64,000 bases of DNA from an uncultured Verrucomicrobiae bacterium (GTDB lineage: Bacteria; Verrucomicrobiota; Verrucomicrobiia; Opitutales; JABDGR01). Below the pieces are notes generated by a model. That model worked only from the letters and a program-made list of their open reading frames with translations, was not told where the DNA came from and made no database searches. Every line of letters starts with the position of its first letter. Position 1 is the first letter of the stretch. The stretch is from assembly GCA_963765205.1 (NCBI GenBank), contig CAVXVB010000009.1, positions 864,001 to 928,000 of the forward strand, read 5' to 3'. This document shows, piece after piece, positions 2,951 to 32,835 of the stretch. Both the position numbers and the translations under genes were made by a program.

Positions 2951-3176
2951 GGAATTTTTACCTGGATGGGGTTGACCTTTTCTATCGGGGTCGTAATGAC
3001 GGTCTTAAGCGAGCTGTTCCAGCTGCGCCTAGGAACGAGACTGGCCCGGCCCTGGCCCGCTCGCAATCCATCAATGTCTAGGGAAAATCCTTAGCGAGAA
3101 TTAGCCGCAATAGCAGTAGCTCAAAGGCCGCTAAACGATTAATAGTAACCAGCGCGGCACGCTTCCGCAAATAGCC

Positions 3177-4577: not shown

Positions 4578-4604
4578 CCGCGCCCACCCCAAAATCCATT
4601 TGCC

Positions 4605-6109
4605 ATGTTTGAATCCGCCAATCTCGACCACCGCGTGGACAAAGCGGTGTATAAGCGCGAAGTGCCGAAGCTGCGCGAGGCACTCCTCAATGCGCAATAC
4701 GACCTGAAGGAAAGTGGCCGCTTTCCCGTCTTGATCCTCATTGCCGGCGTGGAGGGCGCCGGCAAGGGCGAGACCGTCAATCTGCTCAATGAATGGATGG
4801 ACCCGCGCTACATCAGCACCCAGGCTTTTTTTGAGCCGTCGGATGAAGAGCGCGAGCGGCCCGCCCTCTGGCGCTTTTGGCGCGCGCTGCCGCCGAAGGG
4901 CAAACTCGGCGTCTTTTTCGGGGCTTGGCACACCATGCCCGTCATCCAGCGCGTGCAAGGCGATATCACCGAGGGCGAGTTTGCACAGCAAATTGGCGAA
5001 ATTGTGCGCCTGGAAAAAATGCTGTGCGACGAGGGCGTCCTGCTGCTCAAATACTGGTTTCACCTCTCGAAGCCGCAGCAAAAACGCCGCCTAAAACAAC
5101 TGGAAAAGGATTCCGCCACGCGCTGGCGCGTCACCGAGCGCGAATGGGAATATTTCAAGGCTTATAAAAAGTTCATCCGCGTGTGCGAACCGTTTTTGCG
5201 CAAGACCTCGACGGGCGAAGCGCCCTGGATCGTCGTCCCGGCTGCGGATCCGCGTTACCGCGCCCTGACCGTGGGCCGCCACCTGCTGACCGCCCTGCGC
5301 GAGCGTCTTAAAGACCAGCCGGCCAAAGTCCCAGCGGTCAGCACGCCGCCGCTGGCGCTGCCTGCGGACAACCTGAACGTGCTGCGCGCGCTGAAGCTCA
5401 ACCAGCCGCTGACCAAGGACGCATACAAGGCGGAACTGGAGAAATGGCAGGGCCGCCTCAATGCCGCAGCGCGCGATCCCCGTTTCCGATCCCTTTCCGT
5501 GGTCACGGTGTTTGAAGGCAATGACGCTGCCGGCAAGGGCGGCGCCATCCGTCGCGTGACCAGCGCGCTCGACGCGCGGTCCTACCACAATATTTCGGTC
5601 GCCGCGCCCACCGAGGAGGAGCGCGCGCAACCCTACCTCTGGCGTTTCTGGCGGCATCTGCCGCGGCGCGGTCGTTTTGCCTTTTTCGACCGCTCGTGGT
5701 ATGGTCGCGTGCTGGTGGAACGCGTCGAAGGGTTTTGTAGCGAGGCCGACTGGCACCGCGCCTACGTCGAAATCAACGACTTCGAACAGGCCATGGTGCG
5801 CCACAACATCATTGTGGTTAAATTTTGGCTCGCCATCAGCAAGGAGGAGCAGCTCAAGCGCTTCCAATTGCGCGAGAAAACCGCCTTCAAGCGCTTCAAA
5901 ATCACTGCGGAGGACTGGCGCAACCGCAAGCAATGGGGCGCCTATGAGCTTGCCGTCTGCGACATGGTGGACCGCACCTCAACGTCCATCGCGCCGTGGA
6001 CGCTGGTTGAGGCCAATAATAAATATCACGCCCGCATCAAGGTGTTGAAGACCCTCTGCCAGGCCGTGGAAGCGGCGCTCGAAAACGTCAAGCCGGCCAA
6101 AAAAAGTAG
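4605..6109 (+). CDS. pap: Polyphosphate:AMP phosphotransferase (class II, two-domain PPK2); true stop probably TAG 6107-6109 after a 1-nt slip in an A7 run
   Basis: Two PPK2 domains (GVEGAGKG; EGNDAAGKGG, DRSWYGRVLVERV). The ORF-track extension to 6467 is antisense to the MFS gene. Confidence 0.9.
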
Positions 6110-15553: not shown

Positions 15554-16030
15554 ATGAAATCAAACCCCTCAACTTGGACGACTGCCGCAGCGCGGTCGCT
15601 AGCCGGCCTGTTGGCGGCCGGGGCGCTGCTTTTCGCCGGTGCTTGCAGCGACGGGCCGAACAGCGACGTGGAGGAGACGGTGCAAATCATTTCCGCGCCG
15701 GCCAACGCCAAAGTGACGATTGATGGCGTGGACTCCGGCACCACGCCCATCCCGGCCGTGCTGGGCAAAGACCGCGAGACGCACGTCGTCATCAGCAAGC
15801 CGGGGTTTGCGCCCGCGGACATTTACGTCCATGTGCAGGACGGGCACCTGACACCAAACCCGGTGGACGTGAAACTGCGCTGCGAATTGCTGCCCGACAA
15901 ACCCGGCCCGAATCGCGCGGCCGAGCTGGCCACCTGCCTGGAAAATTTGAAGAAATACGTCGCCATCGGCAACATCGTGCCGGAGGACGAGGCCTATGCG
16001 GAGGCGCAAATCCGGGAGTTTTATAAGTGA
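15554..16030 (+). CDS. PEGA-domain lipoprotein
   Basis: Lipobox FAGAC; ISAPANAKVTIDG..GTTP...ISKPGF. Confidence 0.75.
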   Translation: MKSNPSTWTTAAARSLAGLLAAGALLFAGACSDGPNSDVEETVQIISAPANAKVTIDGVDSGTTPIPAVLGKDRETHVVISKPGFAPADIYVHVQDGHLTPNPVDVKLRCELLPDKPGPNRAAELATCLENLKKYVAIGNIVPEDEAYAEAQIREFYK

Positions 16031-16056
16031 AGTGCCTCAGTGCCTTCTTCAAAAAA

Positions 16057-16132
16057 TGGAGCCGGCAGTCGGACTCGAACCGACGACCTACGGTTTACAA
16101 AACCGTAGCTCTACCAACTGAGCTATGCCGGC
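16057..16132 (-). tRNA. tRNA-Thr(UGU)
   Basis: Cloverleaf: GCCGGCA acceptor, D arm GCTCAGTTGGTAGAGC, ACGGT-TTTGTAA-ACCGT, GTCGG-TTCGAGT-CCGAC, encoded CCA. Confidence 0.97.
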
Positions 16133-16187
16133 AAATTGCTTATAAGCAACGAGTTATAAAATAGATTTTTGACCCTAAAATAGTAGT

Positions 16188-16208
16188 TGTCACCCGTTCG
16201 TGTAACTC
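16188..16208 (+). promoter_or_regulatory. Tandem putative integrase arm-type sites TGTCACCC-N5-TGTAACTC overlapping the int promoter region
   Basis: 13-bp periodicity; same motif at 31733-31753 and 49196-49216. Confidence 0.65.
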
Positions 16209-16222
16209 GGTAGTATTCGGGC

Positions 16223-17303
16223 ATGAAATCCCCACAAAAAAAACCCCGCCCGCCAGGATGGGCGAACGTATTCCAAGGTAGCTGAGTGCCTGTATCGAAG
16301 TGACGCATCAGGCATATATTATGCACTGCTCAAAAAGAGCGGCAAGCAAATCCGCCGGTCCCTCAAGACCGATGATCGCAAGTTGGCGGAACGTCGCTTG
16401 GCTGAATTCCGCGAAAAGGTTGACCGGCTCGACCTCGGCGAAGGCAAGACCCGCCTGACCTTTGACGAAGTGGCGGCGCGGTGGCTGGATTCCCTGCGGT
16501 CGCATCTCAAGCCATCCTCGGCGCTGCGCCGGGAAACCAGCCTCAAGCAACTGCGCCCCACCTTCGGAGCCGTCCCAGTGCGCAGCATTATCCGCCTGCA
16601 ATGCGAAGAGTGGGCCAAGCATCGTAGCCCGCAGATCGCGGCCTCCACCTTCAACAATGAGCGGGAAACCATGCTCTCGGTGCTGGAATACGCGCAGCGG
16701 GAAGGGTTGATCATGGACAATCCGGCCAAGGTCATCGGTCGCCGCAAGCTTGGCAAGACAACCGTGCTCATTCCCAGCCGGGAGCAATTCGAAAAGCTGG
16801 TTGCCACCCTGCGCGGTCTCGACATCCGCTACCAGGACGCCGCCGATTTTATCGAACTCCTAGCATACTCCGGGATGCGTAAGGCAGAAGCCAACGCCTT
16901 CGGCCTGGCTGACGTGGATTTTGAGCGCGGGAGCTTCAACGTTACTGGCGGCGAGCTCGGCACCAAAAACCACGAAATGCGTGTGGTCCCGCTCTTTCCC
17001 GTCTTCCGCGCGTTCGTTCAACGCCTCCAAACACAAAGCCCGCGTCCGGCAGATAAACCGCTGGTGCCGATCCTCGACGGCAAGAACGCTTTGGACACCG
17101 CTTGCAAGCTCAACGGTTACCCGCACTTTACGAATCATTGCATGAGACACTTTTTTGTCAGTAATGCGCTTGAAAAGGGCGTTGAATTCAAGACCATAGC
17201 TGCTTGGGTCGGCCACAAGGACGGCGGCTTGCTCGTCGCCAAAACCTACGGCCACCTCCGCGATACCCACTCTTTCGAAATGGCCAAAAGAATTACTTTA
17301 TGA
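16223..17303 (+). CDS. Tyrosine recombinase/integrase (natural ATG 16223 is 1 nt out of frame; slip likely in A8 run 16236-16243)
   Basis: Catalytic R (SGMR), K (GTKN), HxxR (HCMRH), GH, Y (TYGH). Upstream frame VAECLYRSDASGIYYALLKKSGKQIRRSL matches the N-terminus of the paralog at 48110-49180. Confidence 0.92.
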
Positions 17304-17412
17304 ATGCAGAAGCAGAAGCCCAGAAAAATCGGCACCTCCGAGAGTTTTTGGAGACCAAAGCTGCAAGTGCCGTTTCTGGAGCTTCGCGAGATCGCGTAGA
17401 TGGCTCGGAGGC

Positions 17413-17467
17413 CCCGCCAACAAAAGCCCCCCGGCCCTTACGGGCGGGGGGGGCTTTTGTTGGCGGG
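17413..17467. terminator. Long GC-rich hairpin downstream of integrase (20-bp perfect outer stem plus inner 4-bp stem)
   Basis: CCCGCCAACAAAAGCCCCCC (17413-17432) / GGGGGGCTTTTGTTGGCGGG (17448-17467); the terminator role is inferred. Confidence 0.5.
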
Positions 17468-17800
17468 CCTGAGCTTGTTAGAATTCTCAATAAGTCCCAA
17501 ATGCAAGTCGCTTTCGCTGCCAGAAGCCAGCAACCTTGAACTTGACGGCCAAAAGGAAGAGGCCAAAACTATGTTTTGACATAGCTTGAGCGGTCGCATC
17601 TCGACCGATTTCAACCGGACCATGGCAGATGAAAGAGGCCGTCGGGTATGCGGGTGATTCACCGGGGCAAGTCCCGCCGCAGCGGGATTGGGGTGTTTAG
17701 TCGAACGTAGGCGAGGTTCGCTCTAGAAAAAAGAACGGGTTAGTAGCCGAGAAGGTGCTCAGTGACGCTTTAAAATGGCCCAAAGTGCATGTTGGCATGG

Positions 17801-17816
17801 TGGCACTTCCCAGGCT
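17801..17816 (+). promoter_or_regulatory. Possible sigma-54 promoter for the urease operon
   Basis: TGGCAC-TTCCC-AGGCT: GG and GC at -24/-12 spacing, but weak -12 box. Confidence 0.35.
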
Positions 17817-17963
17817 ATGGTTGGCGCGTGGGCTCATTTGCGGCGGTGACTTTTGCCTTGATGCGGCGAACGTTTTTGTTTAGTGAATCGTGGTGTTATG
17901 GTTGTTCCATGGCATAGCGTTCCGTTAAATGATGAAGAGGATTCACCATTTAACCGTGTGAAC

Positions 17964-18779
17964 ATGGCGAAAACCACCGCGCGCCTCGAAGTTAACGTAG
18001 TCGCCGGACGCAGCGCAGCCACCACGGTTTGTTCCTCGAATCCGCTGAAGCTCCTGGTTCCGCGCCCGCGCGGGGAAAGCATCTGGGCCTACCTGGGCAG
18101 TTTCGGGGGCGGGTTCGTGGCGGGGGATGAGACCAGCATGGCCATTCGTCTGGGAGCCGACGCCCGCTGTTTTCTATCCACGCAGGCTTCCACCAAAATC
18201 TACCGCAATCCTCGCGAGCTACCCTGCGGCCAATCGCTCCGGGCCGAGCTCGCAGCCGGTTCGCTGCTCGTCTTCGCGCCCGACCCCATCCAGTCCTTTG
18301 CCGGCTCGGCCTATGCCCAGCGCCAGGAATTTCATCTGCAAGCGGGCGCCAGTCTAGTGCTGGTCGATTGGTTTTGCTCCGGTCGCACAGCGCGCAACGA
18401 ACGCTGGATTTTCACGCGTTTGCAAAGCCGGAACGAAATTTTTGTCGGCGGAGAAAGATTGCTGGTGGATTCCCTGCTGCTGGATCAGGCCGATGGCCCG
18501 CTCGAAGGGACCCATCGCATGGGCCGCTTTAATTGCGTCGCCGTCATTGTCGTCATGGGAGCCTCCGTGGCCGAGGCCGCGGCGAACTGGCTCGCGGAAG
18601 TGGCCAGCCGTCCGGTGGCGCGGCGCGCCAGCCTCATCGTCACCGCCAGCCCCCTGCGGGAAGGCGTCATCGTGCGCGTGGCCGGCGAAAGTAGCGAGGA
18701 AGTCGCCCGCGAAATTCATCGCGGACTCGCCTTTGTGCCCAAATTGCTGGGTGACGACCCGTGGTCTAGAAAGTGGTAA
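17964..18779 (+). CDS. ureD: Urease accessory protein UreD
   Basis: [43 protein letters not shown]; start may be up to 17883. Confidence 0.92.
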
Positions 18780-18786
18780 AACTATT

Positions 18787-19545
18787 ATGCACCTGAACCC
18801 TCGAGAACTGGACAAGTTAATCCTGCACCAAGCCGGTGTCCTGGCGCAAAAACGGCTGGCGCGCGGCTTGCGCCTCAATCATCCCGAGGCCGTCGCGCTG
18901 ATCGCTACGCAGTTGCTCGAATTCGTTCGCGACAGCAAAAGCGTTTCCGAATTGATGGACCTCGGCCGCCAGTTGCTCGGCCGCAACCAGGTGATGGAGG
19001 GCGTGCCTTCCATGATTACAGAAGTGCAGGTTGAGGGAACTTTTCCCGACGGCACCAAATTGATCACCGTGCACCATCCCATCGCCGCCGCCGAGGGCAA
19101 CCTCGTCCTGGCGTTGCAGGGAAGTTTTTTGCCCGTGCCGGACGCCGCCTTGTTCAAGCCGGAGGTCGCAGATATTGAGCCGGGTGAATGTCTCGCGTCG
19201 GAGGGAGTCGTGGAACTCAACGCAGGCCGCAACAGCATCAAGCTCCCGGTCACCAATCTGGGCGACCGCCCCGTCCAGGTGGGCAGCCACTACCATTTCA
19301 TCGAGACCAACGCCTCGCTCGAATTTGACCGGCTCGCGGCCTACGGCAAACGCCTGGACATTCCCGCCGGGACGGCCGTGCGGTTCGAGCCGGGCGAAAC
19401 CAAAACCGTGCAGCTCGTCGACATCGCCGGCCGGCGTGTTATCCACGGCGGCAATAATCTGGCCAGTGGCCCGGTTTCCGACGCCGGCAGGGCGGCGGCG
19501 GCCACCCGCATCGCGCAACAAGGTTTTTCCCACAAATCATCCTGA
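18787..19545 (+). CDS. ureAB: Fused urease gamma/beta subunit
   Basis: [11 protein letters not shown]...[21 protein letters not shown] followed by [13 protein letters not shown]...[15 protein letters not shown]. Confidence 0.95.
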
Positions 19546-19551
19546 CCCACC

Positions 19552-21267
19552 ATGTCGCACCTCATGAAACGCCAGCATTACGCCGAGATGTTCGGCCCGA
19601 CCACGGGCGATCGCGTCCGGCTCGGCGACACTTCTCTCCTCCTGCAAGTCGAGCGCGACCACACGGTCTACGGCGACGAGTGCAAATTTGGCGGCGGCAA
19701 GCCCATTCGCGAAGGCCAGGGCCAGGCCGCCGGCGTGGGACAGGAGGATTGCCTGGATTGTGTCATTACCAACGCCCTCGTCGTGGACTACACGGGCATT
19801 TACAAAGCCGACGTGGGCATCAAGAACGGCCTGATTGCCGGGATCGGCAAGGCGGGCAATCCCGATGTCATGGCCGGAGTCTCCCAAAACATGATCGTCG
19901 GGGTGACCACAGAAGTGATCGCCGGCGAGGGGCTGATCCTTACCGCCGGCGGGATCGACTCGCACATTCATTTCATCTGCCCGCAACAGGCTCATGAGGC
20001 CATCGCTGCCGGACTGACCACCATGGTGGGCGGCGGCACCGGCCCGGCCACCGGGACTTGCGCCACCACCTGCACGCCGAGCGCGTTTTATCTCGAACGG
20101 ATGCTGCAGTCGACCGATGCCCTGCCGCTGAATTTTGGCTTCACCGGCAAAGGCAACACCGCCCTGCCGCAAGGATTGCAGGAACAGATTCTCGGCGGCG
20201 CCATCGGCCTGAAGCTCCATGAGGACTGGGGCACCACGCCCGCCGCCATTGATTGCTGCCTGCGCGTCGCCGATGACCACGACGTGGCGGTGACCATCCA
20301 TACCGACACCTTGAACGAATCGGGCTTTGTCGAAGCGACCATCGCCGCGATCAAAGGCCGCACCATCCATACTTACCACTCCGAAGGCGCCGGTGGCGGC
20401 CACGCGCCGGACATCATTCGCATCTGTGGTGAGGCGCACGTGCTGCCCAGTTCCACCAATCCGACGCGCCCCTATACCGTCAACACGATCGACGAGCATC
20501 TCGACATGGTGATGTTCTGCCACCACCTCGACCGCAAACTGCCGGAGGACGTCGCCTTCGCCGAGAGCCGCATTCGCGGCGAGACCATCGCCGCCGAGGA
20601 TATCCTGCACGACCTCGGTGCCATCAGCATGATGAGTTCCGATTCGCAGGCCATGGGCCGCATCGGCGAAGTCATCACCCGCTCGTGGCAAACGGCGGAC
20701 AAGATGAAGCAACAACGCGGGTCGCTGCCGGGCGAAGCCGCGGGCAACGACAATCTGCGGATCAAACGCTACATTTCCAAATACACCATCAACCCCGCGA
20801 TTGCCCACGGCATGGCGCATGCCATCGGCTCTGTGGAGGTCGGCAAGCTGGCCGACTTGGTTCTCTGGCGGCCCGCCTTTTTTGGGGCCAAGCCCGAAAT
20901 GGTGCTCAAGGGCGGCTTCATCGCCTGGTCGCAGATGGGCGACCCCAACGCCTCCTTGCCCACGCCGCAACCCGTTTTCATGCGCCCGATGTTTGGCGCC
21001 TTTGGCTCGGGCCCGGGCTCGTCGTGCATCGCCTTTGTCAGCCGGCGTTGCCGGGACCAAGGCGTCGCCGCCGGCTACGGGCTGCGCAAACGCATTGACG
21101 CCGTGCAAGCCTGCCGCAAACTCGGCAAGAAGGACATGAAATGGAACGATGCCACCCCGCGGATCACGGTCGATCCGGAAACTTACGCCGTCACGGCCGA
21201 TGGCGTGCCGTTGGTGTGCCAACCGGTCCGCGTGCTCCCGCTGGCCCAACGCTATTCCCTGTTTTGA
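19552..21267 (+). CDS. ureC: Urease alpha subunit
   Basis: [46 protein letters not shown] flap, SSDSQAMGR. Confidence 0.98.
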
Positions 21268-21911
21268 AAACGCCGGACCAGGATTGGCTGTTGTGGCAAC
21301 TCGCGGATTCCGCCTTTCCGACCGGAGGCTTTGCGCACAGCGTGGGATTGGAAGCCGCCTGGCAACATGGCGAGATTCGCAACCCCGCCGAGTTAACGTC
21401 TTTTCTCGAAGCCAGCCTGCGGCAATTGGCTCACTCGGCGTTGCCGTTCGCCGCCGCCGCGCATGACGCGCCGGAACAGGGAGCGGAACTGGACCGCTTG
21501 TCCGACGCCTTTCTCACTAATCATGTGGCCAACCGCGCCAGCCGCGCACAGGGCCGCTCTTTCCTGATGGTGGTGGAAAAAACTTTCGGTTTGGCACACC
21601 ACTCGCTGCCCTTCGGGCATTTCGCGCCGGTATTTGGCGGCACTGCCCGCCGGCTCGGCCTGCCGCGGATGAATACGACCCACCTTTTCTTTTTCCAGCA
21701 TTTGCGCGCGTTGGTTGCCGCCGCCATCCGGCTGGGCATCGTTGGCCCCATGGAGGCGCAGGCCCTCCAGCACCGCTTGGCGCCCCATGCGCGGGAGATA
21801 CTTTCCCGCGGCGGGCATTGGCCCGTTTCCGCCATGGCCCAAACGGCGCCGTTGCTGGAATTATGGCAGGGAACCCAAGACCGCCTCTACTCCCGCTTGT
21901 TTCAAAGCTGA
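21264..21911 (+). CDS. ureF: Urease accessory protein UreF
   Basis: TTG start overlapping ureC stop; [18 protein letters not shown] and C-terminal LYSRLFQS. Confidence 0.93.
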
Positions 21912-21913
21912 CC

Positions 21914-22690
21914 ATGAAAACCCATACGCATCACGACCACGACCATGGCCACGAAGATACCCATGCTCACGGCCATGGCCACACGCACGAACATCTCGAC
22001 CACCCCGGCCATTTCCACGAACGCGACCAACCGCTGCACCGCGATTTCCACCAGCGTGCGTTCACGGTCGGCGTGGGCGGGCCGGTGGGCAGCGGCAAGA
22101 CGGCGTTGATGCTCGCGCTGTGCCGGCAATTGCGCCGGCAAATGAACATCGCTGCCGTCACCAATGACATTTTCACCCGGGAAGACGGCGAATTCCTCAT
22201 CCGCAACCAGGCGCTGGAAGCCGAGCGCATCCGGGCCGTGGAAACCGGCGGCTGTCCGCACGCGGCTATCCGCGAAGACATTTCCGCCAACCTGCTGGCG
22301 CTGGAGGAACTCCATCAGCAATTTCACCCCGACCTGATGCTGCTGGAATCCGGCGGCGACAACCTGGCCGCCCACTTCAGCCGCGAGCTGGCCGATTACA
22401 CCATCTACGTTATTGACGTGGCCGGGGGTGACAAAATCCCGCGCAAAGGCGGCCCGGGCATCACGCAGTCCGACCTTCTGGTCATCAACAAAACGGATCT
22501 GGCCGCCGCCATCGGCGCGGATTTGGGCGTGATGGAGCGCGACGCGCGGCTCATGCGCGGCCACGGCCCGTTCGTGTTCGCGCAAGTCAAGCACGGTCTC
22601 GGGGTTGATGAAATCATGAACCACGTTATCCATCACTGGCAGCATGCCGCGGGCATCGCCCATCGTCATTCCGCCGCTGGAGAAAAATGA
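21914..22690 (+). CDS. ureG: Urease accessory GTPase UreG with His-rich N-terminus
   Basis: [35 protein letters not shown]-terminal [10 protein letters not shown] tract. Confidence 0.96.
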
Positions 22691-22778
22691 GCAGGCGTAA
22701 CCCAATGAAATCATTAAGACGCGAACCGGTGTAAACGATTATGCCTGCGGCCATGGAATCCTCCAACCTCGTTAAAAA

Positions 22779-23837
22779 ATGATCGCACATCTCTTGCCGC
22801 TGCCGAAAAACCTCAAGGGAAATGTTTTGGGCATCTATGGACTGCTGATCGGGGCAAACCTGGCGGTGTGGATTTGGGCGGTGATCTCCTTCCATGCTTA
22901 TCCGTTGCTGCTGGGCACCTCGCTGTTGGCCTATACGTTTGGCCTGCGCCATGCGGTGGACGCCGATCATATTGCCGCCATCGACAATGTCACGCGCAAG
23001 CTGATGCAGCAGGGAAAAAGACCGTTGGCCGTTGGCCTTTTCTTCTCCTTGGGCCACTCCACGGTCGTGTTTGGCCTGTCCCTCGTCATAGCTGTGACTT
23101 CCGCCGCGATCAAGGACCGCATGGAACCCGTTCATGTCATCGGCAGCATGGTGGGCACCTCCGTATCCGCCTTTTTTCTTCTGGCGATAGCGGCGGCCAA
23201 TATGATCGTCCTGGTTTCGGTCTACCGGATGTTCCGGGTCGTCAAGGCGGGGGGCGGCTATGTCGAGGAGGATTTGGAACTGATTCTTGCCCAGTGCGGC
23301 TTTTTGGGGCGGATTTTCCGCCGGGTATTTCGCCTCATCGAAAAAAGCTGGCACATGTATCCGCTCGGTTTTCTCTTTGGCCTGGGCTTCGACACGGCGA
23401 CGGAAATCGGCCTGCTGGGCATCTCCGCCACCCAGGCGTCCAACGGGCTGCCCGTCTGGTCTATTCTGGTCTTTCCGGCGCTTTTCACCACCGGCATGGC
23501 GTTGGTGGACACCACCGACAGCATTTTGATGCTGAGCGTGTACGGCTGGGCGTTCGTGAAGCCGATCCGAAAACTCTATTACAACCTGACCATCACGTTT
23601 GTCTCGGTGGCCGTGGCGTTGGTGGTTGGCGGCATTGAGGCGCTGGGCTTGGCGGTCGACCACTTTGAGTTGCATGGGGCCGTCTGGAATTCGGTTCGTG
23701 GGCTCAACGATAACTTGGGCGCGTTGGGCTTCATCATTATCGGCATCTTTGTCGCCAGTTGGGTGGTTTCGATTACGGTCTACCGGCTCAAACGGTACGA
23801 CGAAATAAAACCCGGCCTGCTGTCAGTTAAAAATTAA
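22779..23837 (+). CDS. HoxN/HupN/NixA-family (NiCoT) nickel/cobalt permease
   Basis: Signature GLRHAVDADHIAAID, FFSLGHST, LFGLGFDTATE. Confidence 0.95.
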   Translation: MIAHLLPLPKNLKGNVLGIYGLLIGANLAVWIWAVISFHAYPLLLGTSLLAYTFGLRHAVDADHIAAIDNVTRKLMQQGKRPLAVGLFFSLGHSTVVFGLSLVIAVTSAAIKDRMEPVHVIGSMVGTSVSAFFLLAIAAANMIVLVSVYRMFRVVKAGGGYVEEDLELILAQCGFLGRIFRRVFRLIEKSWHMYPLGFLFGLGFDTATEIGLLGISATQASNGLPVWSILVFPALFTTGMALVDTTDSILMLSVYGWAFVKPIRKLYYNLTITFVSVAVALVVGGIEALGLAVDHFELHGAVWNSVRGLNDNLGALGFIIIGIFVASWVVSITVYRLKRYDEIKPGLLSVKN

Positions 23838-23918
23838 GCGGTCTGAGCAAAAACGCGCACGAAACTTGGCAAACACGGCCTTGATGGCGCGAATTCGCGA
23901 GGACTTGGAAAAGCGGCT

Positions 23919-23954
23919 GTCGCAATTCCGTTTGTTTTCGTCGCAATTCCGTTT
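23919..23954 (+). repeat. 15-bp direct repeat GTCGCAATTCCGTTT x2 with 21-bp period (candidate activator site)
   Basis: Copies at 23919-23933 and 23940-23954 in the intergenic region upstream of the porin-urt operon. Confidence 0.7.
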
Positions 23955-24226
23955 AATTTTTGTTGTGAGCGGCCCTCCCGCATGACAAAAACTCGGGCCG
24001 GCAGGCGGGAGGTTAACCGGTCGGAAAATGGCGTATTTCCGAGGTGAATTTGCTCAGCCGTGCAATATTTTTCGCGGATGATTCGGCGTGATTCCAGCGT
24101 CCGCACCAGTTAATTCCAATTTCATATTGCATATAAATAAGGCCAGTCGTGATAACGCTGCGATATATAGGCAAAATAAAATTCCGATCGGTTCTTGGCC
24201 GATCGCTTAACGCAAACGTCACATTT

Positions 24227-24242
24227 TGGCATCGTTTATGCT
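24227..24242 (+). promoter_or_regulatory. Sigma-54 (-24/-12) promoter of the porin-urtABCDE operon
   Basis: TGGCATCGTTTATGCT fits TGGCAC-N5-TTGC spacing, ~100 nt before the ATG. Confidence 0.65.
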
Positions 24243-24340
24243 CACTCGTTTTTTCACTGCAAAAGCCGGCTGAATGCTCACTTCAGCATGTCATCTTCCA
24301 ACCACAGCAGGCGCGAATTGCAGCGGAGAAATACGTCGCT

Positions 24341-25612
24341 ATGAATAATCCATCTGCGCTCAAACTGATCCACCGGTGCTTGTTAACCGGGGGTGTTTTG
24401 CTCGGCAGTGCCGCTGTCGCACTGGCCCAAGACACCGCCCCCACCTTGTCCAGCTTGGAACAAGAAAATCAAGCCTTGACCAGTCGCCTCAATGCGCTTG
24501 AGGCCATGGTGCAAAAACAGGGCTTGGCACCCAGTGCCATGCCGATGCCCAGCCCCGTGTCGTCCCTCGATAAAATCACGATCAGCGGCTTTGTTCAGAC
24601 CTCTTATTTCAGCAATCTTGAAAATGAAACTGCCCAGCGCATACCCAGCTATTTGTGGGACAACAAGAACAACAACTTCTCGATCAACAAGGTCAAGTTG
24701 ACTTTTGCCAGCACGCCGGCCGTGCGCAGTGACACGGATTGGAGTGCGGCTTTCCGTGTGTCGTTGATGGCGGGCGAGGACTCCTCGGTTTTGAATTCCG
24801 GCAGCACCGGCCCAATATCGGGTTTCCAATACCTGCGTGAGGCCTACGTGGAAACGAACGTACCCGTCGGAAATGGCTTGATTATCAAGGCGGGCGAATT
24901 GATCTCGCTGCTGAATTGGGAATCCGGCGACGGCGGCGCGGCCAACCCGAATTTTTCCCAAGGTTATCAATGGTATTACACCGGCAATGGCCCGTCCGGC
25001 GGCGTGCAGGCTGATTATGCTTTCACGGATTGGCTGGATGTGACCGCGCGTGTGGACAACGGCCTGTATGCCGGCCCCGTTGGCAACGCGAACAAGAAGG
25101 AAGCGATGGGTTCAATCAACCTCAAACCCACCAAGGATTTCTGGATGAATTTAATCGGCTTTGGCGGCTTGGGTGCCGACGGCTTGGATGCGAACGGCGG
25201 GTCGGTCATCGGCGGATATCAGATCACTCCCGAGCTGGGCACCGGGTTTGAGGGCGACTACTTTAGTTTTCACAATCAGGGCAACCCCTCGGGCGATTTA
25301 GAGTCGATTGGCGGCTGGATCTGGTATGACTTCACGCCCCAATACGGCATTGCTTTCCGGGCTGAATATCTGGATGACCCGGAAGGGGTTGGACTGAACG
25401 GCGGTCCGAACCCGTTTGGCCCCGGCTCCGGAATTTTGTCGCCATCCCCGAACGGAAATTTGGAAAGCTTCACGGTTACGTTCAACTGGCGTCCCGTCTC
25501 CTACTTGAAAATCCAACCTGAATTTCGGGTGAACCACACCTCGTATACGGGTGGCTTTGCCGGCAAACAAAACGAATACATTGTCGGGCTCGGCGCGACT
25601 TATTCGTTCTAA
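24341..25612 (+). CDS. Outer-membrane beta-barrel porin
   Basis: Signal peptide (…AVALA-Q), short coiled coil, amphipathic strands, C-terminal YSF. Confidence 0.8.
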   Translation: MNNPSALKLIHRCLLTGGVLLGSAAVALAQDTAPTLSSLEQENQALTSRLNALEAMVQKQGLAPSAMPMPSPVSSLDKITISGFVQTSYFSNLENETAQRIPSYLWDNKNNNFSINKVKLTFASTPAVRSDTDWSAAFRVSLMAGEDSSVLNSGSTGPISGFQYLREAYVETNVPVGNGLIIKAGELISLLNWESGDGGAANPNFSQGYQWYYTGNGPSGGVQADYAFTDWLDVTARVDNGLYAGPVGNANKKEAMGSINLKPTKDFWMNLIGFGGLGADGLDANGGSVIGGYQITPELGTGFEGDYFSFHNQGNPSGDLESIGGWIWYDFTPQYGIAFRAEYLDDPEGVGLNGGPNPFGPGSGILSPSPNGNLESFTVTFNWRPVSYLKIQPEFRVNHTSYTGGFAGKQNEYIVGLGATYSF

Positions 25613-25675
25613 GCCGCATTTTTTTGACCAGTCAGCTTCAACCTATTAAAAACCAACTCTCTAAAACTCAAAATC

Positions 25676-26998
25676 ATGAAAAGTTACCTGCTACCAATTG
25701 TGGCCCTGGCGGCCACGCTGAATCTCGTATCTCCCGCCGCAGCGGCCGACGCCGCCCCGCCGCCTGACACCGTCAAGGTGGGCGTGCTCCACTCCCTGAG
25801 TGGCACCATGGCCATCAGCGAAACTTCCCTGCGCGATGTGCTGCTTTTTGCCTTCGACCAAATTAACGCTGCTGGCGGTGTTAAAGTCGGCGGTAAATCA
25901 TACATGATTGATCCCGTGGTGGTGGACGGCGCTTCCAACTGGCCCTTGTTTGCCGAGAAGGCCAAGCAACTGCTGGAGGAGGACAAAGTGGCCGTCACGT
26001 TCGGCTGCTGGACCTCGGTGAGCCGCAAGTCCGTGCTGCCGGTGTTCGAGAAGGATAATGGCATGCTGTTCTATCCCGTGCAATACGAGGGGGAGGAGCT
26101 TTCCAAGAACATCTTCTATACCGCCGAAGCGGTGGGACAGCAGGCCACCCCGGCGGTGGATTACCTGCTCGCCCAGGGCAAAAAGAAGTTCTACCTCATC
26201 GGCACCGACTATGTTTACCCGCAAACCACCAACCTGATTCTTTACAAATACCTGCTGCTGCATGGTGTTCCCGTGGAGAATATTGGCGGTGGCTTGCGCA
26301 AAGACGCGGATGGCAAGGTTATTTCCGCCGGCCAATATGTGCCCTTTGGCCATACCGACTTTCAGCAGATTGTGGCGGACATCAAGCAGTTTGCCTCCAG
26401 CGGTGACGCCTGCGTGATCAACACCATCAATGGCGACTCCAACGTGCCCTTCTTCAAGGAAATTGTCGCCGCGGGATTGACCCCGTCCGACTGCCCGGTG
26501 GTCTCCTTCAGTTTGGCTGAAGACGAACTGCGCAGCATGCCGACCAAGGACATGGTGGGTGAACTCGGCTGCTGGACTTATTTCATGTCGCTGGACACCC
26601 CTGAAAACACGGCCTTCCTCAAAAGCTGGAATGACTGGCTGGCGACCGAAGACCACCCCGGGGTAATCAAGGAAAAGCGCGCGATGGATAGTCCTATGGT
26701 CTTGTCCTATGACGGCGTTTATTTGTGGAAACAGGCCGTGGAGAAAGCGGACTCCTTTGATGTGGACAAGGTGCGCGCGGTGCTGGAATCCGGTGACGAC
26801 AGCTTCGCCGGACCGGGTGGCAAAATCACCATGCAGGCGAATCACCACGCCACGAAGAACGTTTACATCGGTGAAACCAAAGCCAACGGCCAGTTCAAGA
26901 TTTTGCAGACTTTTGACCAAGTATATGGTGAGCCGTTCCTACTGAAGGGCTTGGACGACAAGTTGGCCGCGGCCGCGCCGCCCGCCACCACCAAGTGA
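25676..26998 (+). CDS. urtA: Urea ABC transporter substrate-binding protein
   Basis: [49 protein letters not shown]. Confidence 0.95.
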
Positions 26999-27035
26999 AG
27001 AATCGTTCACGGTCAATTCACATGATCTCCAATTC

Positions 27036-27068
27036 AAGGGGGCGGAGCACCAGCTCCGCCCCTTTTTA
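27036..27068 (+). terminator. Intrinsic terminator / stabilising hairpin after urtA
   Basis: AAGGGGGCGGAGC-ACCA-GCTCCGCCCCCTT followed by a T run. Confidence 0.7.
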
Positions 27069-27074
27069 CATTAA

Positions 27075-28831
27075 ATGAAGAAACTATTGAAATGTATTGC
27101 TGCATTGGGTTTGCTGTTGCTGCTGCCGTGCCTCAAGGCGGTGGGAGCCGATTCTCCTGTACCTGACGATGCCGCAGTCCGCCAGCTTCTCGTTCAAGTA
27201 ATCACGAGCAAGGGAGCCGCGCAGCAAAAACTGCTTGGCGACATTGGGGAGACCGGTTCCAAAATTGCGGGAGACGTATTGACGGCCTGGACGCGAGACG
27301 AGGTTTACCTGTATCCCGCGCCCGATGGCACCAAGGTGCCCGTGTTGCTGGAAGACGCGCAGGATGCAAGCGGCAAAGCCCGTGCCCTGCGTATCATTGA
27401 TGGGCAGGTGGTCAAGGACGCCAGCGGCAAGGATTTGCGTTTTGGCGACAGTGAATTGGACACCGCGGATACGGACATGAGTTTGCGCACCACTATCAGC
27501 CGAACGATTGACACCCTGTCCCTCTCCAGCCCCGATGTTGACAGCCGCTGGTCGGCGGTGAACAAATTGGGCAATTCACAAAAACCCATCTATATTCCCA
27601 TTCTTCAGGCCAGGCTGGCCAAAGAGACGGATGCCACCGTGAAACGAGCAATTATGGAAGGCATCGCCACTTTGCAACTCAACGACCCCGAACCGGCCGT
27701 GCAAATTGCGGCGGTCAAGCAATTACAGGCCTTAAATTCGATCGGTAATCTTGACAACCTGCAGCGGCTCGCCGCCGACCCCAAAACCGGCCGCGATGTC
27801 GTGCAAGCCGCCAATCTGGCTCTTGGTTCCATTCAAAGGCACGTTTGGTTTGTGAATTTCTATGGCACGATTTTTCACGGCCTGAGTCTTGGTCCATTCT
27901 CCTGGTGGTCGCACTCGGCCTGGCCATCACCTTTGGCCTGATGGGGGTCATCAACATGGCGCATGGCGAAATGATCGCCATTGGAGCCTACACCAGCTAT
28001 GTCGTGCAAAACCTGTTCGGCACTGGCTTTTCCTTTGCTGTTACCTTGCCTTTTAGCGTTATGGGCAAACCACTCGGTTTTGGCCTGAGTCTGCCGGGAT
28101 TGAACGCCACGGGCTGGTTTTATCAAAGTTATTTTTTGTTCGCGATTCCACTCAGTTTTCTGACTGCCGCGCTGGCGGGGCTCGTGCTGGAACGCACCGT
28201 CATTCAATACCTTTACCGCCGTCCGCTCGAGTCGCTCTTAGCCACCTGGGGCGTGTCCCTCGTCATGCAGCAGCTCTTCCGGATGATTTTTGGGGCGAAC
28301 AACGTCCAAGTCAACTCGCCCTCCTGGCTGCTGGGCCACTTCGATGTGAATGACGTTTCATTTGGCTATAATCGCGTATTCGTCATCGCCTTTGCCTTTT
28401 TAATTGTGTTGGGCACCTGGCTGTTGCTCACCAAAACGCCCCTGGGTCTGCTCATTCGCGCCGTGATGCAAAACCGTTCTATGGCTTCTTGCATGGGCGT
28501 GCGCACCAGCCGCGTGAACATGATGACTTTTGCCTTTGGGTCCGGGCTGGCTGGCTTGGCCGGGGCCTTTCTTTCGCAAATTGGCAATGTGGGGCCGAGT
28601 TTGGGCCAAAGTTACATTGTGGACAGTTTTATGACGGTGGTGGTGGGCGGGGTCGGCAGCATCATTGGCACGGTTTATGCAGCGTTAGGCATCGGCACGG
28701 CGGACCAGGTTTTGCAGCAATTGTTCGGATCGCCAGTAATGGGCAAAATCATCGTCCTCGTCTGCATCATTTTATTCCTGCAATGGAAGCCAGGCGGACT
28801 GTTTTCCATTCGTGGCCGAAATCTGGATTGA
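27075..28831 (+). CDS. urtB: Urea ABC transporter permease UrtB (1-nt frameshift near 27892)
   Basis: N-terminal HEAT-like domain, then GLSLG|SILLVVALGLAITFGLMGVINMAHGE across the frame change. Confidence 0.9.
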
Positions 28832-28835
28832 CACC

Positions 28836-30019
28836 ATGCGGGCCAAGACGACCAATTTCGAGCTGTGGTTTGTGGCGGCGGCGGCCGTGGTGCTGCTGGT
28901 AATCATGCCGGGGTTAAATGCGCTCACCGCGCCGGGCAGCCCGCTGCACGTCAGTGACTTCACCATCAATCTTTACGGCAAGTATCTCTGCTATGGCATT
29001 GTGGCGATCAGCGTGGATTTGTTGTGGGGCTACACCGGCTTGCTTAGTCTCGGCCAATGTCTGTTTTTCGCCTTGGGTGGATATATGATGGGCATGTATC
29101 TCATGCGGGAGATTGGCGACCTGGGCCAATACCACATGCCCATTCCCGATTTTCTCGTGTTTTTGGGGTGGAGCAAACTGCCCGGCTTTTGGAAACCGTT
29201 CTCCAGTTTCCCGTTTGCCTTGATGATGGTCATACTGCTCCCAGCGGTCCTGTCCATCGTGTTTGGCTACATGGCCTTTCGCGCCCGCATTCGCGGGGTC
29301 TATTTTTCCATCCTGACCCAGGCGCTCACCTACGCCGCCTGTTTGCTGTTTTTTCGCAATAGCATGCTCATGGGGGGAACAACGGATTCACGGATTTCAA
29401 GTTTCTGGCCGGTTACGACCTGCGTACCCCCGCCACCCAGCGCGGGCTTTATATTTGCAGTGTGCTGTTGCTGCTGGGAACTTACTTCCTTTGCAAATGG
29501 CTGACGGGGACCAAATTTGGCAAGGTTCAGCGTGCCATTCGCGACAGCGAAAATCGCGTGCTTTTCTCGGGTTATGCCACCGCGCACTTCAAGCTGTTCG
29601 TGTTTGTCCTGGCCGCCATCATCGCAGGGCTGGCCGGCGCCCTCTATGTGCCGCAGGTGGGGATTATTAATCCGAGTGAAATGGCCACGGATAAGTCATT
29701 GGAGGCCGTGGTTTGGGTCTCGGTGGGCGGACGGGGCACCCTGATTGGCCCCGTGATTGGCGCGGTCATCATCAACGCCCTAAAAAGCTGGGCCACGCGC
29801 GCTTATCCCGACCTCTGGCTGTTGTTTCTCGGGATGACTTTTATCTTGGTGACCCTGTTCATGCCCAAGGGCATTGTCGGACTGCCCGCGCAATTGCGCG
29901 GGTTGAAACGGCGTTATCTGGCCGTCAAACCTGCTGAAACCAAAGCCGTCCCGGTCCCGTCGGACCCGCTCCCAGCCTCAGCTCCAGGCGAAATTTTGGC
30001 GAAATCGAACGACAAATGA
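28836..30019 (+). CDS. urtC: Urea ABC transporter permease UrtC (1-nt frameshift near 29378)
   Basis: [39 protein letters not shown] restored by adding one A. Confidence 0.9.
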
Positions 30020-30783
30020 TCATGTCCGAACCCAAACCATTTATCCTCGCCCTGCAAGAGGTGAACAAGTCCTTTGAAGGCTTCAAAGCGATTTCCGATC
30101 TCACCTTTTATATGGACGACGGGGAATTGCGGGTCATCATCGGTCCCAACGGTGCTGGCAAGAGCAGCATGTTGGATTTGATCACCGGCCGCACCAAACC
30201 GGACAGCGGAAAAATTGAATTTGCGCCTAATACGGACCTGACCAAACTGAATGAGGCCGAAATCACCCGCCTTGGCATCGGGCGAAAATTTCAAACCCCG
30301 TCGGTTTACATTGATCACACGGTCTTTGAAAATATCTGGCTCTCGCTGGAAGGCAGCCGCAGCGTGTGGAACACGCTGTTCTCCCGGATCACCTCGGAAC
30401 GCCGGGACCGGATTTTTGAAGTGCTCAAGACTGTCGCGCTGGATGGCAAGGCTGATTGGAAGGCGGGCGCGCTTAGCCATGGGCAAAAACAATGGCTGGA
30501 AATTGGCATGTTGCTCGCGCTCAATCCGAAGCTCTTGCTGGTGGATGAACCCGCCGCCGGCATGACCGACGAGGAAACCTACAAGACCGGCGAACTGCTG
30601 CTCAGCCTGGAAGGCAAACACAGTATCGTGGTCATTGAACACGATATGACCTTTGTCCGGCAAATCGCCCGCAAAGTCACCGTGCTGCATCGTGGCACGG
30701 TGTTGTGCGAAGGCACGGTGGATGAAGTGCAAAACAGCGAACAAGTCATGGAAATCTATCTTGGACGCAAAAAGAAAAACTGA
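30016..30783 (+). CDS. urtD: Urea ABC transporter ATP-binding protein UrtD
   Basis: [34 protein letters not shown]. Confidence 0.93.
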
Positions 30784-30785
30784 CG

Positions 30786-31481
30786 ATGCTGCAACTTTCC
30801 AACATCACCGCCTCCCTCCAAGGTTCGCGCATTTTGCGCGGCGTAAACCTCACCGTGCCTGAACGCAGTCTGGTGTGCCTCATGGGGCGCAATGGCGTGG
30901 GCAAAACCACCACCCTTAAATCCATTGTCGGACTCGTGAAGCCGGACACCGGCACGGTGAAACTGGACGGCAAAGACTTGATGGGCCTCACGCCCAACGT
31001 CCGTGCCCGGCAGGGGATTGGCTATGTGCCACAGGGGCGCGATATTTTTCCGCATCTCACCGTCTGGGAGAATTTAAAGGTCAGCCTCGTGGTCCACAAG
31101 GTCAAAAGCACCGCCCCGGTGGACCGGGTGCTGGAACTCTTTCCCATTCTCAAGGAATTTCTCCAGCGCAAAGGAGGGGTGCTGAGCGGCGGCCAACAGC
31201 AGCAACTGGCCATTGCGCGGGCCTTGCTCACGGAACCTAAAATTTTGATTCTGGACGAGCCGACCGAGGGTATTCAGCCCAACATCATTGACCTCATCGG
31301 CGAAACCCTCTTGAAAATTAAAAAAGAAGGAAAACTAAGCATCCTTCTCGTGGAACAATATCTCGATTTTTGTTTGAGCGTAGGCGACAGTTTTTACATC
31401 ATGGATCGTGGCACGATTGTGGCCGAAGGTTTGATTGCGCACCTGACTGATGAAGTTGTAAGGAAGCACCTTACCGTTTAA
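30786..31481 (+). CDS. urtE: Urea ABC transporter ATP-binding protein UrtE
   Basis: GRNGVGKTT, YVPQGRDIF, LSGGQQQQLAI, DEPTEGIQP. Confidence 0.94.
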   Translation: MLQLSNITASLQGSRILRGVNLTVPERSLVCLMGRNGVGKTTTLKSIVGLVKPDTGTVKLDGKDLMGLTPNVRARQGIGYVPQGRDIFPHLTVWENLKVSLVVHKVKSTAPVDRVLELFPILKEFLQRKGGVLSGGQQQQLAIARALLTEPKILILDEPTEGIQPNIIDLIGETLLKIKKEGKLSILLVEQYLDFCLSVGDSFYIMDRGTIVAEGLIAHLTDEVVRKHLTV

Positions 31482-31732
31482 TCCGTGGTTGCGCTAATAC
31501 CGGAGAAATCCATTACGGCTAGAAACGCTGGCGGTGTTGGCTGCGGCATTGCGGGCCTTAAAGCAGTCCCCGGACAAGCATATGCCGGGGGAGCTTGCGC
31601 CGGGGTCTACGACCGCTCGCCATTCAGGAATCCGCAAGTCCGGGAGGTGTAGCGCATGCGGAACGCACGCCCGGTAGTCTCCACGGTCTGCGGGTTGATT
31701 GGCAAATAGCCAAGATGTAGCCTTCCAAAATG

Positions 31733-31753
31733 TGTAACCCGTTTGTGTAACCC
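31733..31753 (+). promoter_or_regulatory. Tandem putative arm-type sites TGTAACCC-N5-TGTAACCC at the distal island end
   Basis: Exact copies at 31733-31740 and 31746-31753, ~130 nt inside the att repeat. Confidence 0.65.
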
Positions 31754-31881
31754 GGCGGTCGAAAATAAAATGCTTTTGGAGCTTTCAGGACAAGGGCACG
31801 ATTCCCGCTAGCATCTGCCTGGCATGGACTTGATCACTCAAGAGCATAAGAGACGACTATAGTAAATTGTAACATTTAAAA

Positions 31882-31919
31882 TTACAAAACCTTAGCTCTA
31901 CCAACTGAGCTATGCCGGC
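31882..31919 (-). repeat. Displaced 5' half of tRNA-Thr (positions 1-38); distal att site
   Basis: 37/38 match to 16095-16132; identity ends exactly after the anticodon loop. Confidence 0.92.
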
Positions 31920-31944
31920 GCTAAACTTTTTCGATCAATGGCGG

Positions 31945-31974
31945 ACTCTATCGCGATGGAAGCCATGGGGGCAA
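31945..31974 (-). promoter_or_regulatory. Sigma-70-type promoter, probably the original tRNA-Thr promoter
   Basis: Minus strand TTGCCC-N18-TAGAGT followed by GC-rich discriminator CCGCC, 25 nt before the tRNA fragment. Confidence 0.55.
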
Positions 31975-32136
31975 GCCTATCGTGGCGGGCGCAACAATCG
32001 CTGGAAACCATGGCAGGGAAGGAAAGGATTGAACCATTCGCCCGCCGCGGCTGCAGCCATGTTTACATTGGCTATAATTCTCAATTTACGGCGTTTTTAC
32101 GGAGCCAAATCCACCATTTAGGGTTATAATATTAAA

Positions 32137-32835
32137 ATGATCATCAAACCCCTACCCTGTCTGGTTGCTGTAATGTTCGGTCTTGCCATGGTGGGCGCAC
32201 AGACTACCTCGCCGTTCGGCACCCCGCCGCCACATGCCCCCAGCGTCCCCTTGCCGGCCACCCCTGCCCCGGCGCTCGGGCCTGCGCCCCTCATCACCTT
32301 GGCGGCCGAACAGAAAACCGGCACCTTTTCGCCGGAGAATTCCCTCATGACCGGCCCCAACCGGGTCACCATCAGCACCACCTCGAGCGATGGCACCACC
32401 ACCTCGATCAGCAGCCGCCAGCTCGGCAGCGTCACGGCGGGCGCCACCGCGACGACTTGGGTCGAAATCACCGTGCATAATGTCAACAGCACCCCCTTGT
32501 CGCAATTGACGATCCATTACACCCTTTACGTCAAATCCACCCTCGAAGGCACCGGCGCGAGTTCAGTTACCTGGAGTACGCCGCAAGGCGCGGAATCCAT
32601 TGATATTCCCGCCGGCGGCAACACCGTGGTCAAGACCACTCCCGTGCAAAAAGTCATTTCCAACACCGCCACCACCACCATCAAATATCCCGGTATTGAA
32701 ACCTCGTCCGCCAGCACCATGGTGTCCGACATCGCGGGCTGGGTCATCGAGGCCACCTACCAAGGCCGGCCGGTCAAAAAGCTGGCGCACCCCGACGACA
32801 TTCAGGACCAATATAAAGCGGCGACCGGGCGGTGA
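32137..32835 (+). CDS. Secreted hypothetical protein (Thr/Ser-rich, beta-rich)
   Basis: Signal peptide, Pro-rich linker; TATAAT 6 nt before the ATG (possible leaderless start). Confidence 0.65.
   Translation: MIIKPLPCLVAVMFGLAMVGAQTTSPFGTPPPHAPSVPLPATPAPALGPAPLITLAAEQKTGTFSPENSLMTGPNRVTISTTSSDGTTTSISSRQLGSVTAGATATTWVEITVHNVNSTPLSQLTIHYTLYVKSTLEGTGASSVTWSTPQGAESIDIPAGGNTVVKTTPVQKVISNTATTTIKYPGIETSSASTMVSDIAGWVIEATYQGRPVKKLAHPDDIQDQYKAATGR

Follow-up and report, generated by a model that had tools for sequence, protein, structure and literature searches.

Within a window of 64,000 nucleotides (nt) from an uncultured Verrucomicrobiae bacterium of the order Opitutales lies an island of 15,749 bp that is very probably an element inserted by way of the 5′ half of a transfer RNA (tRNA) gene. 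The window, by which we mean the whole stretch of DNA analysed, corresponds to G000:C9:864001-928000, and its source genome, G000, comprises 4.02 Mb in 12 contigs and is 92% complete; soil metagenome runs contain DNA near-identical to it. At one end of the island stands an intact tRNA-Thr(UGU) gene with a tyrosine integrase gene on its 5′ side, and 15.8 kb away the first half of the same tRNA occurs a second time. The features at the two boundaries are as follows, in window positions.

16057..16132, minus strand: intact tRNA-Thr(UGU) (ARAGORN, tRNA-Thr(tgt))
16057-16094, minus strand: chromosomal part of the tRNA, positions 39-76
16095-16132, minus strand: tRNA positions 1-38, the repeat copy that the element would have supplied
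31882..31919, minus strand: 5′ part of the original tRNA-Thr (positions 1-38), presumably displaced (repeat search)
31920..32835, plus strand: native flank, made up of the former tRNA upstream region (31920-32136) and a gene (32137-32835) with an orthologue next to the intact tRNA of genome G002

A preliminary description of this DNA had reported a tRNA-Thr gene with an integrase at its 5′ side and with positions 1-38 repeated (37/38) up to the end of the anticodon loop, and ARAGORN and a repeat search confirmed this arrangement. We found one 38-nt direct repeat, 16095-16132 vs 31882-31919, whose copies are 97% identical and whose flanking sequences are unrelated and give no alignment. The lone mismatch falls at tRNA position 28, which is C in the gene, as in all intact genes, and A in the fragment. 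With the anticodon at position 34, the loop spans positions 32-38, and the repeat identity stops at its last base. Whole-genome blastn detected no further copy of the tRNA-Thr 5′ half in G000; of the 55 tRNAs detected on its 12 contigs, this is the single tRNA-Thr(TGT). The fragment lies upstream of the minus-strand tRNA gene on the same strand, reaches one end of the tRNA gene (tDNA), and sits outside conserved protein domains, between urtE (which ends at 31481) and the gene at 32137. On the tRNA 5′ side, a tyrosine-recombinase open reading frame (ORF; 16383-17303, plus strand) runs divergently from the tRNA. The arrangement of repeat and integrase is far beyond chance, and the same pattern recurs within G000 and in relatives. 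A base-composition profile did not distinguish the island from its flanks.

An empty site and a clade of 5′-type integrases

If the element had supplied the 5′ half, relatives without it should carry an uninterrupted tRNA-Thr beside the region orthologous to 31920 onward. This prediction of the preliminary description was borne out, at the level of gene order, in G002, which with G003 and G004 belongs to the same genus as G000. On one contig of G002, nadA and a gene for a PEGA-domain protein are followed by tRNA-Thr(TGT) and then by the orthologue of window 32137-32835, which starts 145 bp from the tRNA 5′ end, and neither integrase nor urease is present there. The G002 gene and its window counterpart are reciprocal best matches and each other's only match at E<=1e-5, and the G002 tRNA-Thr is 99% identical to that of the window. 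The native upstream region 31920-32136 did not align with the corresponding upstream DNA of G002, G003 or G004, except for the start of the neighboring gene in G002. Two other genomes carry a related integrase at this tRNA. In G006 a 90%-identical integrase occupies the same tRNA on a contig that ends 1.9 kb further on, with no ureD within it. In G007, from another genus of the family, a 72%-identical integrase lies at tRNA-Thr, and a 39/39 copy of that genome's own tRNA positions 1-39 is found on another contig, where arm repeats (described below) stand at 130/143 from this displaced fragment.

The layout is repeated elsewhere in G000. The genome encodes four paralogous integrases including that of the window, to which the others are 61-73% identical, and all four run divergently from the 5′ ends of their tRNAs: Thr(TGT), Arg(TCT), Asn(GTT) and Thr(CGT). 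A 39/39 5′ fragment lies 3.9 kb upstream of tRNA-Arg(TCT), and a 37/38 5′ fragment lies 3.2 kb upstream of tRNA-Thr(CGT).

The integrase was then searched at E<=1e-20 against 401 genomes sampled evenly from the phylum, 27 of which gave a match. For the fragment search, 20 kb was fetched around integrase loci where contigs allowed, and three more close loci were left out of the count because a contig end was reached. Outside G000, each of the 13 loci with more than 40% identity had the tRNA 5′ end facing the integrase start. As the preliminary description had anticipated, the close homologues are flanked by 5′ and not 3′ fragments: a copy of tRNA positions 1 to 38-41 was present at 14 of 15 evaluable close loci, ending exactly at the anticodon loop at nine and 1 nt (three loci), 2 nt (one) or 3 nt (one) past it. 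The tRNAs used at close loci are tRNA-Met, Arg(TCT, CCT), Thr(TGT, CGT) and Lys, and the islands at these loci span 3.2-15.7 kb, one of them being a tandem pair. In a maximum-likelihood tree of 34 integrases, from which the pseudogene fragment L063 was left out, the 17 rows of 5′ type form one clade with support 100/99, whose sister consists of four rows with the classical orientation. Among 11 distant homologues fetched (27-35% identity), seven were classical and co-directional with the tRNA and four were divergent.

Metagenomes gave a similar picture. At least 584 relatives of the integrase were matched, and the best 80 were kept; 18 of these loci had no upstream DNA, leaving 62 evaluable. 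A full tRNA was called with its 5′ end toward the integrase at 55 of the 62, while two had a T-arm on that strand, one a half tRNA and three nothing. The remaining locus, L120, was classed as classical through a co-directional tRNA 364 nt upstream; on inspection, a half tRNA-Arg(CCT) (positions 1-39) adjoins the integrase, ~300 nt upstream of it, and the tRNA 364 nt upstream is a full tRNA-Arg(CCT) in the other orientation, an arrangement that may reflect an inversion between attachment (att) sites. Two viral contigs from IMG/VR (L094 and L095) carry tRNA-Arg positions 1-39 without the 3′ half beside an integrase 32-33% identical to that of the window; judged from their sequences, these appear to be direct examples of the unintegrated site among more distant relatives. 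Six other related viral contigs follow the classical arrangement, with 3′ halves. The attP-like sites of L094 and L095 (attP being the attachment site of the element) are flanked by repeated motifs of their own (GGGCATAGGCAA; GGAGGTAGGCAAAAG).

Given the empty site in G002 and the 5′ fragments throughout the clade, the locus is best read as one in which attP supplied the 5′ half together with the upstream region, and the earlier proposal that the island therefore lies upstream of the gene is supported on the same two grounds.

Several loci of the clade have features of their own. At L068 (G237:C57, 6272-15611) a tandem array contains two tRNA-Met 5′ fragments (positions 1-40, 39/40 each), with a partial second integrase match between them. 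The 3.2-kb tRNA-Thr(CGT) island of G000 (L008, G000:C8:95000-103000, 2496-5781) has as its sole cargo a protein of 357 amino acids (aa) resembling Mrr_cat restriction endonucleases and bearing a topoisomerase-type zinc ribbon; a repeat of ~45 nt (around 2335-2385 and 2835-2885) has one copy outside and one inside this island. The 3.9-kb tRNA-Arg(TCT) island (L088, G000:C9:227001-235000, 1137-5173) holds an IS91-type Y2 transposase and a toxin-antitoxin-like UPF0175 / DUF3368 pair. The fourth paralogue lies within the window itself (47029-49345), where tRNA-Asn(GTT) (49271-49345) and an intact 356-aa integrase (48110-49180, minus strand), 66% identical to that of the island, lie in divergent orientation; arm repeats occupy 49197-49216, and a truncated Mutator-family transposase (47029-47841) adjoins the integrase. 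Elsewhere on the same contig (G000:C9:1287772-1288740), seven tRNA genes (Glu, Gly, Lys, Cys, Trp, Pro and Asn) are packed into 1 kb and repeat anticodons present elsewhere in G000.

Attachment arms and promoter-like sites

The DNA next to both copies of the tRNA half has a conserved layout, with the following features.

16133..16222, minus strand: AT-rich B arm beside the rebuilt tRNA (layout conserved in relatives)
16188..16207, minus strand: tandem arm repeat AGTTACA-N6-GGTGACA, 62 and 75 nt upstream of tRNA +1
31482..31881, minus strand: A arm beside the displaced fragment (alignments anchored at the crossover)
31733..31752, minus strand: tandem arm repeat GGTTACA-N6-GGTTACA, 130 and 143 nt from the crossover boundary

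Across the clade, ~155 nt beside the displaced fragment are conserved and align without gaps. The pattern GGTKACA-N6-GGTKACA, with one mismatch allowed, has three matches in the window (16188-16207, 31733-31752 and 49197-49216) vs 0.07 expected. In most of 14 islands a B-arm tandem pair stands ~63/76 nt upstream of tRNA +1; on the A arm, the first motif lies 129-131 nt past the crossover boundary in 12 of the 14, and a second follows 11-14 nt further in 10 of those 12. Once the islands are oriented by their tRNA, every copy of GGTKACA shares one orientation, and the integrase ATG is ~90 nt from tRNA +1 in most clade members. Orphan tandem pairs also occur in G000 away from all four integrases (C8:397126, C9:351913 and C5:175954) and may be remnants of further elements.

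Phage integrases carry arm-binding domains. The N-terminus of the present integrases has the consensus VAECLYR..SG.YYAL.K..GKQIRRSLKT.D..LAERRL and a weak match to DUF6538 (E 5e-4, below the cut-off), and by analogy the GGTKACA repeats would be putative binding sites of this N-terminal domain.

The same DNA contains promoter-like sites. A consensus scan of 15950-17950 returned five of these vs 0.8 expected. The minus-strand site consists of GTGACA, 17 nt and AAAAAT (16193-16165) and stops 33 nt short of tRNA +1. A plus-strand site divergent from it (16187-16216) points toward the integrase and precedes its ATG, and the -35-like box of each site overlaps the arm repeat. A scan of 31450-32200, which includes the native tRNA upstream region, gave no sigma-70-like consensus. 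The rebuilt tRNA may be transcribed from element DNA, from a promoter predicted by consensus match.

We propose that an element of this tyrosine-integrase clade would have recombined with the chromosomal tRNA-Thr(UGU) gene by strand exchange in the 7-nt anticodon loop, with cleavage presumably at the loop borders. Its attP would have carried, in this order, the integrase gene, arm sites, the AT-rich promoter-like region, tRNA positions 1-38 and the second arm. Given that order, integration would have displaced the native 5′ half and its upstream region by 15.8 kb, and the 5′ half and upstream region of the element would have been joined to the 3′ half of the chromosomal tRNA.

Several observations weigh against this proposal. 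At the G002 empty site, synteny on the right side consists of one gene, a member of a multi-copy family, and the intergenic DNA of the window locus is too diverged from that of G002 for alignment. DNA fetched from G003 and G004 has nadA, the PEGA-domain gene and tRNA-Thr followed by other DNA, with neither an integrase nor that gene. Distant homologues (27-38% identity) are of mixed orientation, and the 11 that were fetched had no tRNA fragment in either orientation within 20 kb. For the tRNA-Asn element, neither a 5′ fragment in the whole genome nor an A-arm repeat in the window was found. Because the arm repeats overlap -35-like hexamers, they could be promoter elements and not integrase sites. 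Finally, Logan contigs from four runs (X1-X4), which are the sole junction data, contained no excised circle or empty-site junction (16094-31920, 31881-16133); assembled contigs drop rare variants, and the missing joints therefore say nothing against excision. In X4, a low-depth record connects 31912 with 16070 through 22 further letters, and we took it to be a different tRNA gene, from another organism.

One could instead take the 38-nt copy for a decayed tRNA pseudogene or a local duplication, with the integrase beside the gene by coincidence. This is exceedingly improbable: the single mismatch between the copies and the lack of observed excision would fit such an origin, but an identical boundary is seen at 14 loci whose integrases are related and whose tRNAs differ, arm repeats stand at fixed distances from that boundary, and G002 retains the empty site. 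We conclude that integration through the tRNA 5′ half accounts best for this locus.

An apparently degenerate copy carrying urea-utilization genes

We next consider the state of the element. Two features follow the rebuilt tRNA and its arm.

16223..17303, plus strand: tyrosine integrase gene (Pfam Phage_integrase, SAM_3; frame comparison)
17204..17539, plus strand: remnant of a backbone gene, following the integrase (BLASTP E 4e-10, ORF clustering)

The catalytic part of the integrase is conserved (PF00589, E 7e-12). Residues R219, K248, H305, R308, H331 and Y342 are invariant in seven clade members and align to XerA 4a8e, and we take the R, K, H-x-x-R, H/W and Y residues to be the catalytic set of tyrosine recombinases. 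The protein scored 41-44 bits against the NCBIfam equivalogs for XerC, XerD and XerA, whose cut-offs are 220-335, and against the integron integrase model TIGR02249 (cut-off 265) it reached 34.6 bits and a paralogue 48.7, each well below the respective cut-off.

The start of the gene is altered. The conserved ATG is at 16223 and the N-terminal domain is encoded from 16227, while the first ATG, GTG or TTG in the integrase frame is a TTG at 16383, which would give 306 aa. Between the ATG and the conserved block there are 46 nt, not 45, which places the N-terminal domain in the +1 frame relative to the ATG; five relatives are in frame. The extra base would most simply lie in the A8 run at 16236-16243. 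A Logan contig of X1 over 15616-16845 matches the window with 0 gaps, and since the X1 contigs agree here yet correct two other indels (see below), the frameshift is probably real in the X1 population. That slippage on the A run restores the frame in a minority of transcripts is speculation.

Backbone genes have also been lost. Typical relatives are 5-8 kb long with four common genes, which encode the integrase, a 250-285-aa protein of unknown family (clustered from eight islands), a 70-aa HTH_17 helix-turn-helix (HTH) protein (10 islands) that matches the PHROG 'excisionase and transcriptional regulator', and a REP_ORF2-G2P rolling-circle replication protein (Rep; six islands). A 285-aa protein of L010 resembles the 250-285-aa cluster and was not joined to it at E<=1e-6; the first 36 residues of the window remnant, all that is left of such a gene there, are 50% identical to the start of a 285-aa protein encoded after the integrase in typical relatives, and a perfect 20-bp inverted repeat (17413-17467) lies inside the remnant. 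Neither an HTH_17 excisionase-like gene nor a Rep gene was detected in the window element by Pfam or by clustering of island ORFs, and none of the three G000 islands whose ends were mapped has the 250-285-aa, HTH_17 or Rep genes. This copy is a stripped derivative that keeps both arms and the integrase.

The rest of the island is occupied by genes for urea utilization.

17840..31480, plus strand: cargo block, 13.6 kb (Pfam, NCBIfam)
17883-18779, plus strand: ureD
within ORF 18442-19545, plus strand: fused ureA/B
19552-21267, plus strand: ureC
within 21141-21911, plus strand: ureF
within 21818-22690, plus strand: ureG
22779-23837, plus strand: nickel transporter, HoxN/NixA-type
24149-25612, plus strand: beta-barrel porin, OmpL-like
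25676-26998, plus strand: urtA
27075-28831, plus strand: urtB
28812-30019, plus strand: urtC
30016-30783, plus strand: urtD
30786-31481, plus strand: urtE

NCBIfam scores exceed the cut-offs for UreC (955.6/680), UreG (280.5/204.2), UreA/B (330.1/243), the nickel transporter (415.8/333), UrtB (381.3/250.3), UrtD (360.2/304.1) and UrtE (309.9/285.8), with UrtA (471.6) slightly below its cut-off of 492.75. The Logan contigs of X1 have, at full depth, one extra G after 27890 and one after 29371, the first of which is also present in X3. At 27890 the added base fuses a HEAT-repeat ORF with urtB, and at 29371 it rejoins two pieces of urtC; because the splits coincide with these insertions, we attribute them to single-base deletions of the window assembly. 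From its sequence, the cargo looks intact.

Few relatives carry this urease. UreC was found at E<=1e-50 in one of nine other genomes of the family (G003, 99% identical) and in four of 21 other genomes of the order. G003 holds the whole block 17840-31480 in the same order at another, non-tRNA locus without integrase or element arms, and the DNA flanking it there matches G000 contig C2 at 80-84%. Identity of this cargo to that of the window is mosaic, at 94-96% from ureD to the nickel transporter and 80.5% from the porin to urtE, with the breakpoint of L086/L087 (G003:C6:14000-53999) between window 23837 and 24207. The presence of the cargo at another locus in G003 without the element ends indicates that it is a separable unit, moved or exchanged independently of those ends.

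It has to be asked when the cargo arrived. A small integrase element may have come first, with the urease-urea block inserted in situ later and replacing the Rep/excisionase backbone, a course of events that we find plausible, if somewhat short of probable. The homology with G003 begins and ends exactly at the cargo (17840-31480) with the element ends unmatched, the truncated backbone gene abuts the cargo, the 90%-identical integrase of G006 is at the same tRNA with no ureD within 1.9 kb, and the single other family genome with this UreC is G003. Capture before integration would, however, give an identical final structure, and no transposase or repeat was noted at the cargo borders in the analyses made. 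The cargo was either carried in or captured later.

Mobility can be weighed in the same way. We regard it as unlikely that the island is still active, excising and reinserting with full-length integrase produced by slippage on the A8 run or with the help of one of the three intact G000 paralogues. Both arms and the core copies (37/38) are nearly intact, as is the catalytic domain of the integrase, and the paralogues are in frame and have the same GGTKACA repeats; the ure half of the cargo, at 94-96% identity against 80-84% for flanking DNA in the other species, also shows that this DNA was exchanged recently. Set against this, the integrase start codon and the N-terminal domain stand in different frames, as an independent assembler agrees, HTH_17 excisionase-like and Rep genes are missing, and the G000 paralogues target other tRNAs. 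The G003 cargo lies at a non-tRNA locus without element arms and therefore moved by another route, and the lack of a junction in Logan contigs points the same way as weak evidence. We lean slightly toward a window element that is fixed or rarely mobile over one that is autonomously mobile.

Known 5′-fragment islands and biological meaning

The preliminary description implied that the geometry was new and invisible to existing pipelines, which was overstated. As described for Islander, 159 of 3919 accepted islands have a 5′ tDNA fragment and 3760 a 3′ fragment, and the configuration filter rejects only downstream 5′ or upstream 3′ fragments (PMC4383910). The same account assigns 2083 of the 3919 islands to site A, in the anticodon loop (PMC4383910), and the anticodon stem-loop is described as mimicking a core site with a 7-bp overlap (PMC4383910, PMC8371274). 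Like the Islander 5′-fragment islands, the island studied here combines an intact tRNA gene, a 5′ fragment upstream in the same orientation, a tyrosine integrase between the two and an anticodon-centered site, with the element replacing the 5′ part and the upstream region. Its fragment has the reach, orientation and upstream position that Islander asks of this class, its integrase is of the tyrosine type, its length falls within 2-200 kb, and no domain is overlapped. Islander was the sole find in the literature when we looked for promoters of 5′ tDNA fragment islands.

What the present case has beyond the Islander class is a clade with this layout as its rule, a fixed architecture of arm repeats and a urea-utilization cargo. 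The pTN3-like integrases of Thermococcales also use the 5′ half of a tRNA gene as the chromosomal attachment site (attB); a review reports that the integrase promoter then drives the rebuilt tRNA and that a comparable situation is seldom met in bacteria (PMC8371274). Those are integrases of archaeal plasmids and viruses, likened here by description only, whereas the present clade is bacterial, with members in Verrucomicrobiota genomes and on 80 metagenome contigs (the best of at least 584). Classical anticodon-loop islands share a tyrosine integrase, a crossover centered on the anticodon loop and arm-type repeats in attP, but they carry the 3′ part, lie downstream and keep the native promoter in charge. 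Relatives of the window integrase with that classical orientation exist at 27-32% identity.

Earlier 5′-half cases are cited in reviews. The reversed 5′-fragment geometry is rare and already catalogued (2002-2015), and no new mechanism is opened by it. The prototype paper, by Zhao and Williams (2002, J Bacteriol 184:859), names reversed target gene orientation in its title. Beyond the catalogue are the reversed layout as the rule of a whole clade, the constant plan of the arms, the backbone of typical elements with Rep and excisionase-like genes, and the degenerate, cargo-laden state of this copy.

The island offers a clean, well-bounded example of the minority class of 5′-fragment tRNA islands, and the fixed attP plan could help to detect such elements where no tRNA fragment is available. 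For the ecology of the organism, it places a complete urea-utilization set, with urease, nickel uptake, porin and Urt transporter, inside a mobile-element frame. Tentatively, and with more doubt than confidence, we suggest that these observations together may describe a large, apparently undescribed lineage of 5-8 kb integrative replicons in Verrucomicrobiota and environmental metagenomes, each with an integrase, an excisionase-like HTH protein, a filamentous-phage-type rolling-circle Rep and a rigid attP made of a promoter and half a tRNA gene. Because the arm repeats overlap the -35-like boxes of the predicted tRNA and integrase promoters, the state of the element could tune expression of a single-copy tRNA, and stripped derivatives such as this one may be landing pads that fix metabolic operons beside tRNA genes.

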